DNA from: a virus
Taxonomy: Duplodnaviria > Heunggongvirae > Uroviricota > Caudoviricetes
Direction: 5' to 3' (one strand)
IMG/VR virus record: IMGVR_UViG_2711768004_000013
Length of the DNA stretch: 45,436 nucleotides
Below the pieces are notes generated by a model that saw nothing but the letters and a program-made list of their open reading frames with translations, ran no database searches and was not told the DNA's origin. The first letter of the stretch is position 1. Every line of letters starts with the position of its first letter. Shown in pieces: positions 1-45,436 of the stretch. The translations under genes were made by a program, and so were the position numbers.

Positions 1-573
1 ATGTTTTGCGAAGAAAAAGTAGCTCAAATGGCTGCATACCTACTTCTTAAGCGAGGTGGGCGCATGGCATATCTGAAATTGATGAAGCTGCTCTATCTGT
101 CTAACCGCAAGTCGATTTTGAAGCATGGCAGGATGATCGGCGAAGATAGCCTTTACTCTATGAAATTTGGTCCAGTCATGTCGAATACGCTGAACTTGAT
201 TCGTGGTAAGGCTGAAGGTATTGGTGACTACTGGTACAACCTGATAGAGACGAACGGGCATGATGTGTTGTTGCGTTCAGATCCGAGGGAAATGGATGCA
301 GACGAGGTCTTTGATGAGTTGAGCCGTGCAGATATCCGGATTTTAGATGAAATCTATTCTCTGTATGGGCATATGAACCGATTTGATCTCGCAAACATGA
401 CGCATTTAGAAAGCGTTTGTCCAGAGTGGCACAATCCTGGCAATTCTCGTAAGCCTATAGACCTGAAAGAAATGCTGATCAGTGAGGGTAAAAGCGAGGA
501 TGAGGCTAATCGTATAATTGGCAAAATGGAAGAATCTCAGAAACTTAAGGAATTTTCTTTGCAATTATCATGA
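1..573 (+). CDS. Panacea-like (DUF4065-type) protein, putative antitoxin; start may lie at or just beyond the window edge
   Basis: 190-aa ORF; N-terminal segment KLMKLLYLSNRK...SMKFGPVMSNTL fits the KLxKLLY...GPV pattern I associate with DUF4065/Panacea; stop overlaps the downstream ORF start by 4 nt (ATGA), suggesting translational coupling. Confidence 0.55.
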   Translation: MFCEEKVAQMAAYLLLKRGGRMAYLKLMKLLYLSNRKSILKHGRMIGEDSLYSMKFGPVMSNTLNLIRGKAEGIGDYWYNLIETNGHDVLLRSDPREMDADEVFDELSRADIRILDEIYSLYGHMNRFDLANMTHLESVCPEWHNPGNSRKPIDLKEMLISEGKSEDEANRIIGKMEESQKLKEFSLQLS

Positions 574-989
574 CGGATTATCAGCCATACAGGAAAGGAA
601 CTGTGCTTGCCCCAACTGGGCCATGCAATCATCTTCATGTGATTTGTAATGATCCTGTTTATTACCCCGTTAACGATTGTTATTGTGTTTTAGTTGTTAA
701 TATTTCTAGTATCAAGGATGGTGTCCCCCACGATCCGTCTTGCGTCTTGAATTCTGGTGATCATCGCTTTATCAAGCATCCAAGTTATGTTGTTTACGCT
801 GAAGCTATAATTTGGCGAGTGGATAACATGGTTAGAAAGCAGCGATCGGGTGAGATTTCCGTTCATGATGATATGCCAGAAGCTACATTCAATAGAATTC
901 TGGACGGTTTTGATATATCTGATGAAGTTACGCCAAAGAACCTTAAATTTAAAAATAAATATTGCGTATCATCTATTGATGATGAGTAA
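570..989 (+). CDS. hypothetical protein, candidate toxin partner of the upstream Panacea-like protein
   Basis: 139-aa ORF coupled to the upstream gene by ATGA overlap; somewhat more AT-rich than the upstream gene; no motif I recognise. Confidence 0.45.
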   Translation: MTDYQPYRKGTVLAPTGPCNHLHVICNDPVYYPVNDCYCVLVVNISSIKDGVPHDPSCVLNSGDHRFIKHPSYVVYAEAIIWRVDNMVRKQRSGEISVHDDMPEATFNRILDGFDISDEVTPKNLKFKNKYCVSSIDDE

Positions 990-1028
990 ACAACAGGAAT
1001 TGTTTCGGTATAGCTTCTGGAGTTTTCT

Positions 1029-1202
1029 ATGGAAGATCAAAAAGCAACCAAGCCACAGGTTAAGTTCGACACAATGAAAGCATTCGCAGGTATGGGTGCT
1101 GCTGTTGAAGTTCTGATGAAGGCTGCTCCTAATGCGTTCACTCACGCTACTGTCTCTGGTAAAGAGCAGCAGGGTAAGCTTCGTCGTCGCAAAGCAGCAT
1201 GA
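1029..1202 (+). CDS. small hypothetical protein (57 aa)
   Basis: ATG at 1029 preceded by GGAG about 8 nt upstream; ends just before a strong intrinsic terminator; below the ORF-track length cutoff. Confidence 0.3.
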   Translation: MEDQKATKPQVKFDTMKAFAGMGAAVEVLMKAAPNAFTHATVSGKEQQGKLRRRKAA

Positions 1203-1222
1203 TCATAGCTGGTGCTTTTTGA

Positions 1223-1248
1223 AAACCCGCCTTTAGGCGGGTTTTTTC
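1223..1248. terminator. bidirectional rho-independent terminator
   Basis: AAAACCCGCC-TTTA-GGCGGGTTTTTT: GC stem flanked by an A-run and a T-run, placed between the convergent plus-strand module and the minus-strand PrtN-like gene. Confidence 0.6.
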
Positions 1249-1249
1249 T

Positions 1250-1531
1250 TTAGTGATGTTCTTTGCCCTTCTGTTTGCCTGTTCTGACCTGTTCCCACTC
1301 GATACGTCCTTCTTCTCGTCTTTTGTCTATGTATTCCGCAAGATCCTGAATATTGATGCAACGTTTTGCTTTTTGTGATGTACCGATGCGATATGTAGGT
1401 ACAGGCAACTTACAAGCGTTTGCTTTTGCTTCTGCTGTGGCTGGACTCATACCAAAGTATTTTTGACTAACTGCTGAGAGTTCAATGTTTGGGGTATTGA
1501 ATTCAGCCATCAGTAAAAACAAGGTATTCAT
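1250..1531 (-). CDS. PrtN-like (pyocin activator family) phage transcriptional regulator
   Basis: 93-aa ORF starting MNTLFLLMAEF... with ...DLAEYIDKRREEG, resembling PrtN-family regulators as I recall them. Confidence 0.65.
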   Translation of the reverse strand: MNTLFLLMAEFNTPNIELSAVSQKYFGMSPATAEAKANACKLPVPTYRIGTSQKAKRCINIQDLAEYIDKRREEGRIEWEQVRTGKQKGKEHH

Positions 1532-1567
1532 ATCATTTCTCCATCATAACCGGCTGCACCCGGTGAG

Positions 1568-2350
1568 TTACTTATTCATTTCAATAATATTATTTTCTAT
1601 CATTGATTTATTTAAAACCAAAGAAGGAGCAAGATGGTTGTCTATTTTAAACAATGCATAACTTTTAAACTGTTGGTGATATCCGTAACTAATAAGGATG
1701 CTAGAAAAATCTCTTAATTCATCTTCTTTTAAAAAATTAAAATGAAATGGGTTGTCACCATTTATGAACAATGAAACATCTATTATGCAGTATTTCTCTC
1801 CGTTGTCATTTGCATAGAAAAAAATATAAGACATTCTGTTTGTTAAGACAATGCCATTAAATTTTCTTATGTCTGTAGCTATTTTGTTTTCCATGTTTGG
1901 TGCTACATATTTATTTTCAGAAATACATTTAATTTCATCTCCAGATGTCGTGATTATATAAAAATGAAACTTATCAGAAATATCTAACTTAACTACGCCA
2001 TCATTATTGTAAAGGCTGCTAAATTTTGGTGGTTCAACTTTTAAAGAATCATAGTTCTTTAAAAGAAGAGGGGAGTCAAATTTAATAACTTGTAGTATCC
2101 CTTTACCTTCAACCTCCATATTGATTGAAGATATAGCAATTGCATTATCTCTTTTATTATTCAGGATTATGGTTGATATATGCATGTCATATATTCTACT
2201 TGCATTTGCTGAATACGACACTGTCACCTTTTTTGATATTTTTTGCACGCCAAAATATATAGTGAAGGCAGCGGCAAGAATAGATAAGAATTTAATGTCA
2301 AATAAGGACCATAGCCACATTAGTTGCTCAATTGCTTCAGAGTTAATCAT
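1568..2350 (-). CDS. membrane-anchored hypothetical protein (AT-rich moron); start ambiguous (in-frame ATGs up to 2383; the 2401 codon is TTG)
   Basis: ORF 1568..2401; single N-terminal hydrophobic helix (LMWLWSLFDIKFLSILAAAFTIYFGV) followed by about 230 aa rich in N/K/I/D; strongly AT-rich versus flanking genes; separated from the upstream operon by a terminator. Confidence 0.5.
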   Translation of the reverse strand: MINSEAIEQLMWLWSLFDIKFLSILAAAFTIYFGVQKISKKVTVSYSANASRIYDMHISTIILNNKRDNAIAISSINMEVEGKGILQVIKFDSPLLLKNYDSLKVEPPKFSSLYNNDGVVKLDISDKFHFYIITTSGDEIKCISENKYVAPNMENKIATDIRKFNGIVLTNRMSYIFFYANDNGEKYCIIDVSLFINGDNPFHFNFLKEDELRDFSSILISYGYHQQFKSYALFKIDNHLAPSLVLNKSMIENNIIEMNK

Positions 2351-2504
2351 TTGCTTTACCATTATCGCTGTAATACAACACATGTGTGTATATATACGCA
2401 ATGCAATTATTTTGCAAGTGCTTCATTTACTATCAATAGCTACGTCACGTTATTGTTTAATGGTTCTTTATAGGGGCGGCAATAGTTAAAATTATCGCTT
2501 CCGT

Positions 2505-2526
2505 AAATGCCCCCGCAGGGGCATTT
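2505..2526. terminator. intrinsic terminator between the early-left operon and the AT-rich moron
   Basis: AAATGCCCC-CGCA-GGGGCATTT: 7-bp GC stem with A and T runs on both sides. Confidence 0.5.
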
Positions 2527-2538
2527 GCAGTAATGAAA

Positions 2539-3363
2539 TCAGGCGGTGAAAGTACCAATAAAGGTTTCTACTTTGCTGTCTTTGAATTTCTCAACAAGCA
2601 GATCACGAAATTCGTTAGCCATTTCTTCCTGTACCGCTTCCAGCTGAATAATGCGCAGAACCAGTACAGGACGATCGCCAGTGATAATGCTGAGGCGTAA
2701 TTTAAACGGACGTTCTTTCAGACCTTCAAACGGAACGCATTTAAATTCAAATGCCACTGGCATAATGTCTTTGGTCTTCGCTTCGACAGACTCCATCAGG
2801 GAGCGTTTGCCGCTGAAGTCATTATCTTCAAAATCAGCGGTCTGGTTCGCTTCAATTGTGATTTTACGGATCGCCGCAGCCGCTTTGGTTGCCTGAATGG
2901 CGTCACCATTAGCATCAAAGCCCACAAGGTAGTCGGCCCAGTCTTCAATCCATTCTGCCAGTGACTTCTGGGAGTTACGCTCGCCATTAACAGACAACAG
3001 AGCAGAGAACGGAGCTGTCTTTTTCAGTTTGAGAGTGGCGGTGTTATCTGCGTGACCTGGTTCATCAATAGTACCCAGGTTAAGAACACTGACGGCACGC
3101 ATATTATCAGCATCGATAAAGCAGCGGGTGCCTTCATCTGCAAGATCTTTAGAATAACGAGTAAAGTCATCGATGCTGGCAGTGGAAAGCGCACCACGGA
3201 AACGGAAACGATTTAAATTTAATTTTTCCAGATCATGAATGCGGAAATTCTCAGGCAATGCCACAGCATCGGCACCAATCTTACTGATAATTTCATTAAC
3301 ACCCTGAGCAGAAATAAGGGCATGGATTTGATTAATTGCGGTTGCGTCTAAGTTCTGAGACAT
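2539..3363 (-). CDS. conserved phage early protein (possibly DUF2303/YfdQ-like)
   Basis: 274-aa ORF with a GTGAGGA Shine-Dalgarno upstream; protein-like composition; the family assignment is from memory only. Confidence 0.55.
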
Positions 3364-3428
3364 AATAAGTCCTCACTATATAAAGATATTCAGTGATGAG
3401 ATAAATAATCGGTTAATTAAGAACGATA

Positions 3429-3790
3429 TTAATGACCTGCTGCGCGGAGTTTTCCGTCAGGTTCACCGGCAAGAGTCAGTAATTGTCCCTGGTCTTCCTG
3501 CAGAATAGTCAGGCGACCACCGCGATTGACATACATCGGCGTTTCGGTGGTGTCTTCTTCGGAAATTTTCCCGCGGTTAGTCGGGCGAACATATGAGAGT
3601 TTGTGTTTGATTTTCACACGGTTCTCATCAAATGGTTCGATTTCCAGGTTGAGTGAGACCTTACCTTTGGTTTTCGTGTTCATCACACCGGAAGCGACTT
3701 CACTGAGAACTGCGCCGATTTTGGTTTCAAATACGCCGCCGTCCAGCTCCCCAATAAATGCCTGCACATCAGTACTGCGTTCGCTAGCCA
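3429..3790 (-). CDS. hypothetical phage early protein (120 aa)
   Basis: ATG at 3788-3790 (minus) preceded by AGGAG; the upstream extension of the ORF track (to 3977) is Cys/His/Arg/Trp-rich and not protein-like. Confidence 0.55.
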
Positions 3791-3838
3791 TTTTGCTGCT
3801 CCTAATCATATCGACCCTGCAAGGTCGGTTGGTTTCTC

Positions 3839-3940
3839 CACAAAACAGAGAAGAACACCTGCGGTGGCAGCCGCCCGGATGGATTTGGTTATGAGCCCGT
3901 CGTCCGGTGATGCTCTTCTCTGTTTTGTAAAAAGAGCGGT
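3839..3940 (-). promoter_or_regulatory. nut-like element: boxA-like CGCTCTTTTTA followed by a large hairpin with 15-bp perfect arms
   Basis: Minus strand reads CGCTCTTTTTAC, then ACAAAACAGAGAAGA ... about 60 nt ... TCTTCTCTGTTTTGT; lies in the leader between the putative PL and the first early-left gene. Confidence 0.3.
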
Positions 3941-4411
3941 ACCAGCCGGAAGCAAGTGTACAAACTGGTACCGCCAAAGCAGTGGCTGTTGTGGTGACCG
4001 GTGCTGATCTCCGGCTTGCGGTTATTTCAGACTCTCACGGGCGTTTAATTGCCCCGCCGAACAGCTCTTTTCCGCATTAGCTGCAATGTCTTTCGCGCAT
4101 CAGCCTGCGCATTCACCACAACGCTGAGAGCACTTAGCCAGTTACGGCACCACACTTTGTCGCGGTTCCATAAATGTCCTCATCGTTGCACCCTGGTCTC
4201 TTCCCAGGCGTCAAACCGAATCGCCACGCTGGTTAGGCGTCTTATCAGCATCATCATTGACTTGCACATTCCGGCTACCTGGTTTGTTTGCCCGAGCAAG
4301 GAGTGGATTGTCCCCTTTAACGTCCCCAGACCGCTAACGACGCATGTGCCATACGCCGTGTTACAACCAAATTTTGTTTAATCTTGCCTGTGCTGTGTTT
4401 CTTTTAGATAC

Positions 4412-42836: not shown

Positions 42837-43934
42837 TCAAGAGGTCTTATTTCTGCTCCTTTGGAGTTCTTCAAAACGATTATGTAAAGATTTCGGATAC
42901 AGTTCGGTATATACCTGCCATAGCACGTTTAATGAACGATGCCCTGTAACCTGAGCGACTTCCTCAATACTAAAACCAGCCTCAAATAAGCGACTTGCCC
43001 CTTCTCTACGCAAATCATGGTATCTCAGATCTTTAATACCTAATTTGCTTCTTACCCTCTGAAATCCTGCGGTAACAGAAGTGCTGTTATATGGAAAAAT
43101 GAATTCTGATTTTTTGGGTTGTCGCTGGACGATATCCCAGGCTTCCCCAAGCAAGGCAACTTTCATATGGTTGCCTTCCTTTTTACGTGGATCTTTCCTG
43201 TCTCTTACTAGTATAGATTTTTGTTCCTGGTCGAGATCTTCCCATCGTAACCGGCATACTTCTCCGATTCGCATACAGGACCACACAGAAAATTTGAGGA
43301 TATCAACGAACGGAATTTTTGAGCATTTATGAGTAGATCGTTGTTGAAGGCCTTCAATGAGCATGTTCAGTTCATCAGATGCTGGTCTACGATTACGACG
43401 GTTTGATTTACCAATCAAACCGAGTTTAAGTAGATATGGACGAGCGCTTTTCGCCGGGTTTGATGTGTAATTGATTCCGTATACAGGTTTTGCCGCATCC
43501 AGAACACTGCCAAGATAACTAACATCGTGGCTGACTGTTGCTGGGCCTGCACCAGCGTTGTTTCTTAGCCTGCAATGTTCAATTACGTCATTTTCTGTCA
43601 GTTCAGATAGTTTGATCGCGGAGATGTCACTATCCATAAGCAGTTCCAGCACATATCTTTTAGTACGGCCTGCTTTACCTCCGGCATTTGGGTCATTTAA
43701 ATATTTGTGTAGTAAGTCACGGACTGTAAGTCCGTCAACAGCATTTGATGATGGAATGCCATATAGATCTAATTCCATCACTTTCTGTGCGCCCCATGTT
43801 TTGGCATGAGCATGTTTAGGGAATGTTTTGCTTTCCCTGTAAGTGATAACACCTTTTTCTTTGATAATCACATTACAGCGATAGCGTGGTGTGCCATCGG
43901 ATTTTAGTCGTTTCTCTATGTTATAGTACGCCAT
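42837..43934 (-). CDS. int: tyrosine integrase (dusA-associated type)
   Basis: 365 aa; C-terminal catalytic residues in HDLRREGASRLF, VTGHRS and LWQVYTE; immediately adjacent to dusA. Confidence 0.9.
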   Translation of the reverse strand: MAYYNIEKRLKSDGTPRYRCNVIIKEKGVITYRESKTFPKHAHAKTWGAQKVMELDLYGIPSSNAVDGLTVRDLLHKYLNDPNAGGKAGRTKRYVLELLMDSDISAIKLSELTENDVIEHCRLRNNAGAGPATVSHDVSYLGSVLDAAKPVYGINYTSNPAKSARPYLLKLGLIGKSNRRNRRPASDELNMLIEGLQQRSTHKCSKIPFVDILKFSVWSCMRIGEVCRLRWEDLDQEQKSILVRDRKDPRKKEGNHMKVALLGEAWDIVQRQPKKSEFIFPYNSTSVTAGFQRVRSKLGIKDLRYHDLRREGASRLFEAGFSIEEVAQVTGHRSLNVLWQVYTELYPKSLHNRFEELQRSRNKTS

Positions 43935-43953
43935 TACACGACCTCGTTATTTC

Positions 43954-43989
43954 GGGTTCCCATAAAGCGTGGGAACCTGTGCGGGAACC
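43954..43989. repeat. GGGAACC direct repeats with one inverted copy in the int-dusA intergenic region (possible recombinase or regulator binding sites)
   Basis: GGGTTCCC at 43954-43961, then GTGGGAACCT and GCGGGAACCT at 43969-43990. Confidence 0.3.
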
Positions 43990-44022
43990 TAACGCGAGAA
44001 AAATAGCCTGAAATGTTCAAAA

Positions 44023-45060
44023 ATGCACGATAATCCTGAAACACAGAAAACTAATCAAACCAGCGTGATGCCTGAAAAAACTGGCGCTTACTGGAGTTCT
44101 CGGTTTAGCATTGCTCCTATGCTCGACTGGACGGACAGACATTGCCGCTATTTCTTGCGTCTGCTTTCCCGCAATACGTTGCTGTATACCGAAATGGTGA
44201 CCACAGGGGCGATTATTCACGGTAAAGGTGATTACCTGGCGTACAGTGAAGAAGAACATCCGGTAGCGTTGCAACTCGGCGGTAGCGATCCGGCGGCGCT
44301 GGCACAGTGTGCGAAGCTGGCAGAAGCGCGTGGATATGATGAGATCAACCTGAATGTCGGCTGCCCGTCTGACCGGGTGCAGAACGGCATGTTTGGTGCG
44401 TGTCTGATGGGTAATGCGCAGCTGGTTGCCGACTGCGTGAAAGCGATGCGCGATGTGGTGTCGATTCCAGTGACGGTGAAAACGCGTATTGGCATCGATG
44501 ACCAGGACAGCTATGAATTTCTCTGCGATTTCATCAACACCGTTTCCGGCAAAGGCGAGTGTGAGATGTTTATCATCCACGCACGTAAAGCCTGGCTTTC
44601 GGGGTTAAGCCCGAAAGAAAACCGTGAAATCCCGCCACTCGATTATCCGCGTGTGTATCAACTGAAGCGTGACTTTCCGCATCTGACAATGTCGATTAAC
44701 GGTGGTATCAAGTCGCTGGAAGAGGCCAAAGCACACCTGCAACATATGGATGGCGTGATGGTCGGGCGCGAGGCGTATCAGAATCCGGGTATTCTGGCGG
44801 CGGTAGACCGGGAGATCTTTGGTTCCTCGGATACCGATGCCGATCCGGTGGCGGTAGTGCGCGCCATGTATCCGTACATTGAGCGTGAACTCAGCCAGGG
44901 GACGTATCTCGGCCATATTACCCGGCATATGTTGGGCTTGTTCCAGGGTATTCCTGGCGCGCGGCAGTGGCGGCGTTATTTAAGTGAAAATGCCCATAAA
45001 GCGGGTGCAGACATTAATGTGCTGGAACACGCGCTCAAACTGGTGGCGGATAAGCGTTAA
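44023..45060 (+). CDS. dusA: tRNA-dihydrouridine synthase A
   Basis: 345 aa with the conserved ...[16 protein letters not shown]... region and active-site context NLNVGCP; recognisably E. coli DusA. Confidence 0.9.
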
Positions 45061-45142
45061 CTTTTCACCAAAAAGTAGTCAAATTCACCACGCCCTGCGC
45101 ACCGTCGCGGGGCGTTTTGCTGTTAAATCAATAGATTATTTT

Positions 45143-45158
45143 TGGCATGATTCTTGTA
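45143..45158 (+). promoter_or_regulatory. putative sigma-54 promoter of pspG
   Basis: TGGCATG-ATTC-TTGTA fits the -24/-12 pattern TGGCACG-N4-TTGCA at 10 of 12 positions. Confidence 0.4.
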
Positions 45159-45193
45159 ATGCCAGCAAGAGATTTCATATTTGGGAGAGCATC

Positions 45194-45436
45194 ATGCTGG
45201 AACTACTTTTTGTGATTGGCTTTTTTGTCATGCTGATGGTCACCGGCGTTTCGTTGCTGGGCATTATCGCCGCGCTGGTTGTGGCGACGGCCATTATGTT
45301 CCTCGGCGGTATGCTGGCATTGATGATTAAGTTGCTGCCGTGGTTACTACTGGCGATTGCGGTGGTGTGGGTTATTAAGGCGATTAAAGCACCAAAAGTG
45401 CCGAAATATCAGCGTTATGACCGCTGGCGTTACTAA
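45194..45436 (+). CDS. pspG: phage shock protein G
   Basis: 80-aa very hydrophobic protein; sequence and position downstream of dusA match E. coli PspG. Confidence 0.85.
   Translation: MLELLFVIGFFVMLMVTGVSLLGIIAALVVATAIMFLGGMLALMIKLLPWLLLAIAVVWVIKAIKAPKVPKYQRYDRWRY

Follow-up and report, generated by a model that had tools for sequence, protein, structure and literature searches.

A PanA-PanT gene pair of class T6 next to attL in a dusA-integrated lambdoid prophage of Escherichia coli

The first 989 nucleotides (nt) of a 45,436-nt stretch of tailed-phage DNA (IMG/VR record IMGVR_UViG_2711768004_000013; this whole stretch is called the window below) carry two overlapping plus-strand open reading frames (ORFs), panA (ORF1, 1-573), encoding an antitoxin of 190 amino acids (aa) with a Panacea domain, and panT (ORF2, 570-989), encoding a predicted toxin of 139 aa. 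The pair is a real E. coli prophage member of class T6 of the known PanAT toxin-antitoxin (TA) systems, and it brings no new toxin, toxin fold or kind of system. A preliminary description, made from the letters of the window, was right in kind, since it had proposed a Panacea TA module, but wrong about novelty, T6 being a known cluster. As for the mode of action, we consider it likely that the genes form a type II PanAT module in which the toxin is a translation inhibitor with a MazF fold, probably an endoribonuclease, that is restrained by direct binding of PanA, coupled translation providing the antitoxin first. Current annotation names the antitoxin only as "Panacea domain-containing" and leaves the toxin as a hypothetical protein, whose RefSeq start codon is corrected here.

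The antitoxin gene, its overlap with panT and the conserved pairing

The assignment of ORF1 to DUF4065/Panacea, at first made from a motif pattern, holds in a profile search: the protein matches the Pfam family PF13274 (SocA_Panacea, formerly DUF4065) with 67.9 bits (E 1.8e-18; gathering cut-off 25.7 bits), and the match extends over residues 27-137 (nt 79-411) and profile positions 1-109 of 113. The ATG of panA is base 1 of the window, and RefSeq contains an identical coding sequence (CDS) of the same 573 nt (WP_000458583.1, "Panacea domain-containing protein"), so that the gene is full length and is not clipped by the window edge. PanA is a stand-alone Panacea protein, without an N-terminal DNA-binding domain; 204 homologues were found at E ≤ 1e-10, and PF13274 is present in 120 of the 120 that were listed.

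The AlphaFold2 model of PanA is confident throughout (predicted local distance difference test, pLDDT, 92.5), and it consists of the Panacea core, a segment with the conserved motif CPEW..P.GS..PI, and two helices at residues 155-161 and 166-189, the second of them long; the segment and the helices are part of a C-terminal extension (residues 138-190, nt 412-570). In the PanA alignment (A5), H135, E142 and W143 are invariant, and C140, P146 and I153 are nearly so. The extension is a candidate toxin-contacting or dimerisation element. Comparison of the model with the structures in the PDB returned no structural neighbour (best E 1.8), hence no solved Panacea structure is at hand to guide the mechanism of neutralisation.

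Regarding the junction of the two genes, the stop codon of panA (TGA, 571-573) and the start codon of panT (ATG, 570-572) overlap in an ATGA at 570-573, as had been noticed in the preliminary description. This overlap would be abolished by the start that PGAP assigns in RefSeq, a GTG at 603 that yields a protein of 128 aa (WP_014640052.1; 6603-6989 in locus L001); ATG 570 is the start used in GenBank phage records. Despite its better Shine-Dalgarno sequence, GTG 603 was rejected because the 11 codons upstream of it (MTxYxPYRKGT) show protein-level conservation among 38 homologues, in which G10 never varies and P6 hardly ever does, which makes ATG 570 and its overlap the better call. Inspection of the sequence found no Shine-Dalgarno sequence at normal spacing 5' of ATG 570; together with the overlap, this suggests that translation of panT is probably coupled to termination of panA. 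In the 24 related loci with a PanA gene upstream, the overlap is of four bases in 10 and of one base in 1, and another 10 have gaps of 3-62 bases; the overlaps of 157 and 142 bases at L012 and L021 are artefacts of taking the longest upstream start, and L028 was left unscored. Many of the T6 pairs in the dataset of Kurata et al. 2022 (PMC8832971) have an overlap of -4 or -1.

The two genes are inherited together over a wide range of bacteria. A scan of one genome per species (query alignment A1) located PanT relatives at 26 loci across Gamma-, Beta- and Alphaproteobacteria, and at all 24 loci with enough upstream sequence to be tested, the gene directly upstream on the same strand encodes a PanA homologue (BLASTP E 3e-120 to 1e-12). 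Likewise, PanA lies directly upstream of the PanT relative in 9 of the 9 phage records that encode PanT according to tblastn, the hosts being Escherichia, Yersinia, Vibrio, Pseudomonas, Klebsiella and Helicobacter. The identities of PanA and PanT to the window pair co-vary (Spearman 0.87, n = 23); this co-variation is partly due to shared phylogeny, yet it is as predicted for a co-inherited two-gene unit. With hundreds of homologues of each protein and adjacency kept over three proteobacterial classes, the pairing goes far beyond chance.

Among complete E. coli genomes, the pair occurs in 208 of 5,426 (~4%), always on the chromosome, and it is complete in 206 of the 208; in the genomes listed, one partial case still has panA but a panT truncated at the 3' end, and none has panT without panA. 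A prophage pair that is common in this species is now placed in an experimentally grounded TA class.

One of the phage records is incompletely annotated. In Pseudomonas phage Sirocco (OR683410), a PanT homologue of 132 aa at 1486-1884, 48% identical to window PanT, is absent from the GenBank annotation, and in its stead a CDS of 44 aa is annotated on the other strand (1741-1875). Base 1486 is also the last one of the PanA gene, so that the two genes overlap by one base.

The class to which the pair belongs was defined in a survey of DUF4065 gene neighbourhoods, which named the domain Panacea and clustered its partner toxins (Kurata et al. 2022, PNAS, PMC8832971). In Dataset S1 of that study, T6 includes Pantoea septica LMG 5345, "Yersiniaceae bacterium 2016Iso4", Pluralibacter, Proteus, Photorhabdus and Halomonas, and it also contains the Pseudomonas moraviensis PanT WP_083201923.1, labelled "TA" and, by HHpred, "EndoA/PemK/MazF-family RNAses". 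Experiments on the P. moraviensis pair revealed that the toxicity of PanT was neutralised by its cognate PanA (Table 1 of PMC8832971), that the two proteins formed a PanT:PanA complex in pull-downs, and that PanT specifically inhibited the incorporation of 35S-methionine, i.e. protein synthesis.

The toxins of 2016-Iso4 (L007) and P. septica LMG 5345 (L008) are 55-56% identical to window PanT (E 2e-49 and 1e-48), and the 1-base overlap listed for 2016Iso4 in Dataset S1 agrees with the value measured at L007. With the P. moraviensis protein P0242 (SDU72800.1, 132 aa), window PanT shares 43% identity over 120 residues (E 6e-34); we infer that P0242 is WP_083201923.1 from its species and gene context, not from the accession. 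The members of the 90%-identity cluster of P0242 overlap a PF13274 gene by one base and are in a non-phage chromosomal context. The N-terminus MIFSEQKVAQ, which Kurata et al. added to P. moraviensis PanA, is exactly that of the PanA of phage Sirocco, and window PanA has the similar MFCEEKVAQ. Judged by these sequence relationships, the window pair belongs to the published, partly validated cluster T6. The partner of PanA had at first been taken for an uncharacterised and plausibly novel toxin; this has no support, because its family is T6, predicted to be EndoA/PemK/MazF-like and with one member validated. The idea of a Panacea antitoxin coupled to a toxin as a TA module is instead upheld by the PF13274 match, by the synteny in 24 of 24 loci and 9 of 9 phages, by the MazF-like fold of the partner described below, and by its identity of 43% to the probable validated PanT.

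PanT, its fold and its probable action

The 139-aa ORF had been described as lacking any recognisable domain, and it indeed has no family in Pfam, NCBIfam or PADLOC, hits such as ICMT and DapC being noise below threshold; its only match is phrog_19071 in PHROG, a group of unknown function. The PanT family is large, an exhaustive profile search having returned 2,673 cluster representatives at E ≤ 1e-3, of which 930 reach E ≤ 1e-10. In 102 diverse members, H21 is conserved in 102 of 102, Ser or Thr occupies position 47 in 100, D55, C58 and H65 are each kept in 99, and at position 72 there are 97 Ser and 5 Thr; every one of these signature residues is intact in window PanT. H21, S46/S47, D55, C58, H65 and S72, encoded between nt 630 and 785, are candidate active-site residues.

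The AlphaFold2 model of PanT, built from an alignment of 38 sequences (mean pLDDT 93.9; predicted template-modelling score, pTM, 0.87), has a beta-rich core followed by three helices: a MazF/Kid/CcdB-like beta-barrel core spans about residues 10-100, and two of the C-terminal helices are extra to that fold. Foldseek comparison of the model with the PDB gave MazF structures for all of the top 46 matches (best E 1.5e-3; template-modelling, TM, score 0.51 on the query and 0.65 on the target), and MazF and Kid structures ranked above CcdB in both fold searches that were run. Accordingly, the predicted structure has the SH3-like barrel of the CcdB/MazF type. The likeness of PanT to MazF is revealed by structure comparison only, not by sequence profiles: of the two checks that the preliminary description had proposed for this protein, structure prediction led to a MazF-like fold, and the remote homology search with sequence profiles gave no link.

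In the proposed mechanism, a single rightward transcript would carry panA, panT and a small passenger ORF, and would end at a hairpin at 1221-1246. Translation of PanT would be coupled to termination of PanA via the ATGA overlap, so that no toxin would be made without antitoxin. Free PanT, with its barrel resembling those of MazF and Kid, would most likely stop growth through a block of translation, and it would probably be an endoribonuclease; if the motif register holds, the invariant H21 would stand in for the catalytic Arg of MazF, and the conserved Ser/Thr at S47 for its catalytic Thr. PanA would neutralise PanT by direct binding through the Panacea domain, the conserved C-terminal helices, or both; PanAs are known to neutralise either via the Panacea core directly or via appended elements (Ernits et al. 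2023, PMC10440598). We favour a contribution of the conserved C-terminal region, by analogy with the C-terminal tail of MazE. Toxicity, neutralisation, complex formation and inhibition of translation are expected for the window pair from the behaviour of the 43%-identical P. moraviensis pair; the RNase chemistry, the neutralising surface of PanA and the biological role belong to speculation, and for the last the likely candidates are prophage retention and protection of the lysogen by abortive infection or against superinfection.

Several observations weigh against this mechanism. Window PanT has no match to the Pfam family PF02452 (PemK_toxin) at E ≤ 1, and scanning 102 family members against Pfam gave a single PemK match, with E 0.011; a profile search of the PDB sequences with PanT returned nothing, and the hhalign comparison of the PanT family with a profile of three sequences (E. 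coli MazF, Bacillus subtilis EndoA and Kid, verified against PDB chains) gave a probability of 0.5%. With the motifs of MazF R29/T52 placed in register by eye, not by superposition, H21 falls at the place of the Arg and S46/S47 (Ser/Thr at 47 in 100 of 102) at that of the Thr; the canonical Arg of MazF is thus not conserved at the equivalent position of PanT in this register. PADLOC has no model for PanA or PanT, and our literature search found no paper showing anti-phage activity of a Panacea TA system. Finally, eight predicted PanTs, two of them from phage-associated T1 pairs, were not toxic in E. coli (Kurata et al. 2022, PMC8832971), and it is by only 43% identity that this E. coli pair is tied to the validated toxin.

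Part of these observations would also fit a genuine PanAT system whose toxin is not an endoribonuclease of the MazF type but acts, for example, by CcdB-like poisoning of gyrase or by metal-dependent chemistry of H21/D55/C58/H65. The lack of profile-level similarity of PanT to PemK/MazF points in this direction, together with the invariant His, not Arg, in the motif register, with D55, C58 and H65, which are 97% conserved and could bind a metal, and with the two C-terminal helices that MazF does not have; moreover, a shared TA fold need not imply a shared function (Ernits et al. 2023, PMC10440598). However, the validated T6 member specifically inhibits protein synthesis, replication and transcription not being its primary targets, and such a translation-specific effect argues against a CcdB-like mode; the fold searches placed MazF and Kid above CcdB, and HHpred in the study of Kurata et al. 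pointed to EndoA/PemK/MazF RNases (PMC8832971). We regard an activity other than that of MazF as unlikely.

A second alternative is that there is no functional TA system in E. coli: the genes might be a conserved phage pair with another role, such as a sensor and effector directed solely at incoming phage, or PanT might not be toxic in this host. The eight non-toxic PanTs, which include the T1 pairs of an E. coli strain and of phage Emek, would agree with this, as would ten further NetFlax pairs without toxicity (Ernits et al. 2023, PMC10440598). On the other hand, the non-toxic phage-associated pairs are T1, whereas the relatives of the window pair are T6, and the T6 member that was tested is toxic in E. 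coli; all signature residues are intact in window PanT, and the antitoxin-first order, the translational coupling and the strict co-occurrence are as a toxic partner predicts, no listed genome having panT alone. The chance that no functional TA exists here appears slim. Farther still from the type II module favoured above is the view that PanA serves mainly in phage counter-defence, as a decoy antitoxin against PanT-like toxins of the host, the downstream gene being incidental; the model for such a decoy is Dmd of phage T4, which neutralises RnlA and LsoA. That panA is phage-borne, and that two substitutions suffice to evolve Panacea antitoxins toward non-cognate toxins, would suit a decoy, but panT accompanies PanA at all 24 genome loci and in all 9 phages, with co-varying divergence, and in Pseudomonas the pair also occurs in non-phage chromosomal contexts, so that this explanation is hardly credible.

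The pair in its prophage

The right end of the window (43900-45436) contains a tyrosine integrase, an intact (restored) dusA and pspG, from which it follows that the window is an entire dusA-integrated lambdoid prophage with a little host DNA; panA and panT are an attL-proximal accessory cassette of this E. coli prophage. In a lysogen with the identical cassette (E. coli AR_0085; L001, 5643-6000), 105 nt from the native 5' end of dusA remain as an orphan ~250 base pairs (bp) upstream of panA on the same strand, and alignment with the free phage Lys8385Vzw places the crossover inside dusA-like sequence. No terminator was predicted between the dusA fragment and panA in the lysogen, the stretches considered for this upstream region being L001 5643-6000 and L002 4547-5000; a sigma-70-like site, TTGACC-17-TAAACT, is predicted 127 bp upstream of the panA ATG. 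Because the dusA fragment points into the prophage and no terminator is predicted after it, the host dusA promoter could provide a lysogen-specific expression of panA-panT-orf3; as judged from sequence, the phage promoter, read-through from dusA in the lysogen, or the two together may account for expression.

Downstream of the pair, ORF3 (1029-1202, plus strand) encodes 57 aa with a basic C-terminus; it matches phrog_2741 (E 8.4e-36) and has no family in Pfam or NCBIfam. No terminator was predicted between 989 and 1029, and ORF3 is probably co-transcribed with the pair. We do not count it in the TA module: its place beside xis is conserved with or without panAT, and both ORF3 and xis are present without panAT in phage mEp460. 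The panA-panT-orf3 unit is closed by an intrinsic terminator on the plus strand (1221-1256), formed by the hairpin at 1221-1246, with an 11-bp stem including 6 GC pairs, and by a T-run. On the plus strand the hairpin has a folding energy of -19.3 kcal/mol (z -3.7); on the minus strand it has -18.1 kcal/mol and a weak U-tract, with about four U after the stem, the T-run being clear on the plus strand only. The stop codon of a gene of the xis/PrtN family (1250-1531, minus strand) abuts the terminator. Like this gene, the next three (1568-2401, 2539-3363 and 3429-3977) are encoded on the minus strand, and the pair does lie opposite to its neighbours, as the preliminary description had stated. Its further picture of an autonomous cassette ending at a bidirectional terminator stands in part: the hairpin is strong, but its T-run is on the plus strand only, ORF3 intervenes between it and the pair, the promoter is outside the window, and in the lysogen the cassette follows immediately after the dusA promoter and 5' fragment of the host, without a predicted terminator in between.

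As for the mobility of the pair, phage mEp460 (NC_019716) has at 1784-2317 a gene for the 177-aa gp23, without a Pfam match, that replaces panAT between attP/int and the 57-aa ORF; phages of this group carry variable cargo at this place close to the integration site. In Yersinia phage YeP1, the pair is located between dinI and int. This placement and the alternative cargo of mEp460 indicate that the pair is a mobile two-gene accessory cassette of the integration-proximal variable region of temperate phages.

A further reading, which we hold to be rather improbable as a whole, combines the setting with the unusual residues of the toxin. The T6 PanTs would form an enzymatic branch of their own within the MazF/CcdB fold, using H21 with D55/C58/H65 in place of Arg/Thr and perhaps acting on a different target; the module would capture the host dusA promoter at attL for lysogen-specific expression and would serve abortive infection, superinfection defence or prophage retention, with Panacea as the sensor of the trigger. 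A role of Panacea as a possible trigger sensor has been proposed (Ernits et al. 2023, PMC10440598). The window pair offers a tractable example in its native host for two questions: what makes Panacea antitoxins release their toxins, and whether PanAT modules carried by phages protect lysogens from other phages or make the prophage more stable.

Two observations concern the neighbouring genes. Neither Pfam nor PADLOC gave a match for the 277-aa product of the minus-strand ORF at 1568-2401, which matches phrog_14996, a group of unknown function (E 3e-178); the GC content of this ORF is 28-32%, versus 42-50% in the flanks, and it replaces the exonuclease/DUF551/yfdS/yfdR block of the AR_0085 prophage. 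It has the look of a moron, rich in AT and gained by horizontal transfer, and is a candidate for a role in exclusion or defence. The whole arrangement of positions 1-4000 is common to 52 of the 5,426 E. coli genomes.

Comparison with known systems

Some of the known systems could be set aside. Type III TA systems (ToxIN/CptIN), whose toxins share the fold distantly, and other RNA elements were rejected, because tandem repeats are absent and Rfam matches nothing but the terminator hairpin, below threshold. The T1 pairs of E. coli MOD1_EC5558 and Salmonella phage Emek are likewise phage-associated, antitoxin-first Panacea pairs of Enterobacteriaceae, but they belong to another toxin cluster (T1 versus T6) and are reported as "not Toxic" (Kurata et al. 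2022, PMC8832971); T1 as the home of the window pair was rejected, since its relatives are in T6 and no Salmonella phage record is among the tblastn matches of either window protein.

SocAB of Caulobacter crescentus, a type VI TA system, has the founding Panacea antitoxin, and PanA shares with it the Pfam domain SocA_Panacea. The toxin SocB is an inhibitor of the replication clamp and is not known to have a MazF fold. Membership of the SocAB type was rejected, as PanA scores 13.5 bits against the NCBIfam equivalog model of SocA (NF047745), with a cut-off of 190. The two antitoxins are also expected to work differently, given that SocA is a ClpXP adaptor that has SocB degraded, whereas PanAs neutralise by direct binding according to Kurata et al., who used strains without ClpXP and Lon.

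With MazEF and Kid-Kis (PemIK), the window pair has in common the antitoxin-first operon and the small toxin, and the validated T6 relative of PanT likewise blocks translation. Strand motifs appear alike when compared by eye, namely G-x-[VIL] in beta-1, [RH]-P/L-x-[VI]-[VI] in beta-2 and V-x-x-[ST]-[ST] in beta-3, followed by a later [DP]-S-x-[VI]-x-x-x-[QE]; a relationship between sequence profiles is not detectable. In contrast, the antitoxin here is a Panacea protein and not of the MazE/Kis/PemI type (AbrB or ribbon-helix-helix, RHH), and PanT differs from MazF in its much shorter beta1-beta2 loop, in the His that takes the place of the catalytic Arg in the motif register and in the two extra C-terminal helices.

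Among the closest characterised systems is PanA-PanT of P. moraviensis. Both pairs have the antitoxin before the toxin with an overlap of 1-4 bases, a stand-alone PanA without an N-terminal domain, N-termini of PanA that are nearly identical (MFCEEKVAQ here and MIFSEQKVAQ there), and a PanT of 132-139 aa without a Pfam domain and with a predicted MazF-like fold. As for their differences, the PanTs are 43% identical, and the Pseudomonas protein has E and C where most family members have G63 and D64; at this distance the target specificity could differ between the two toxins. The P. moraviensis pair is chromosomal and classed as "NotPhage", whereas the one described here is an attL-proximal cassette of a dusA prophage.

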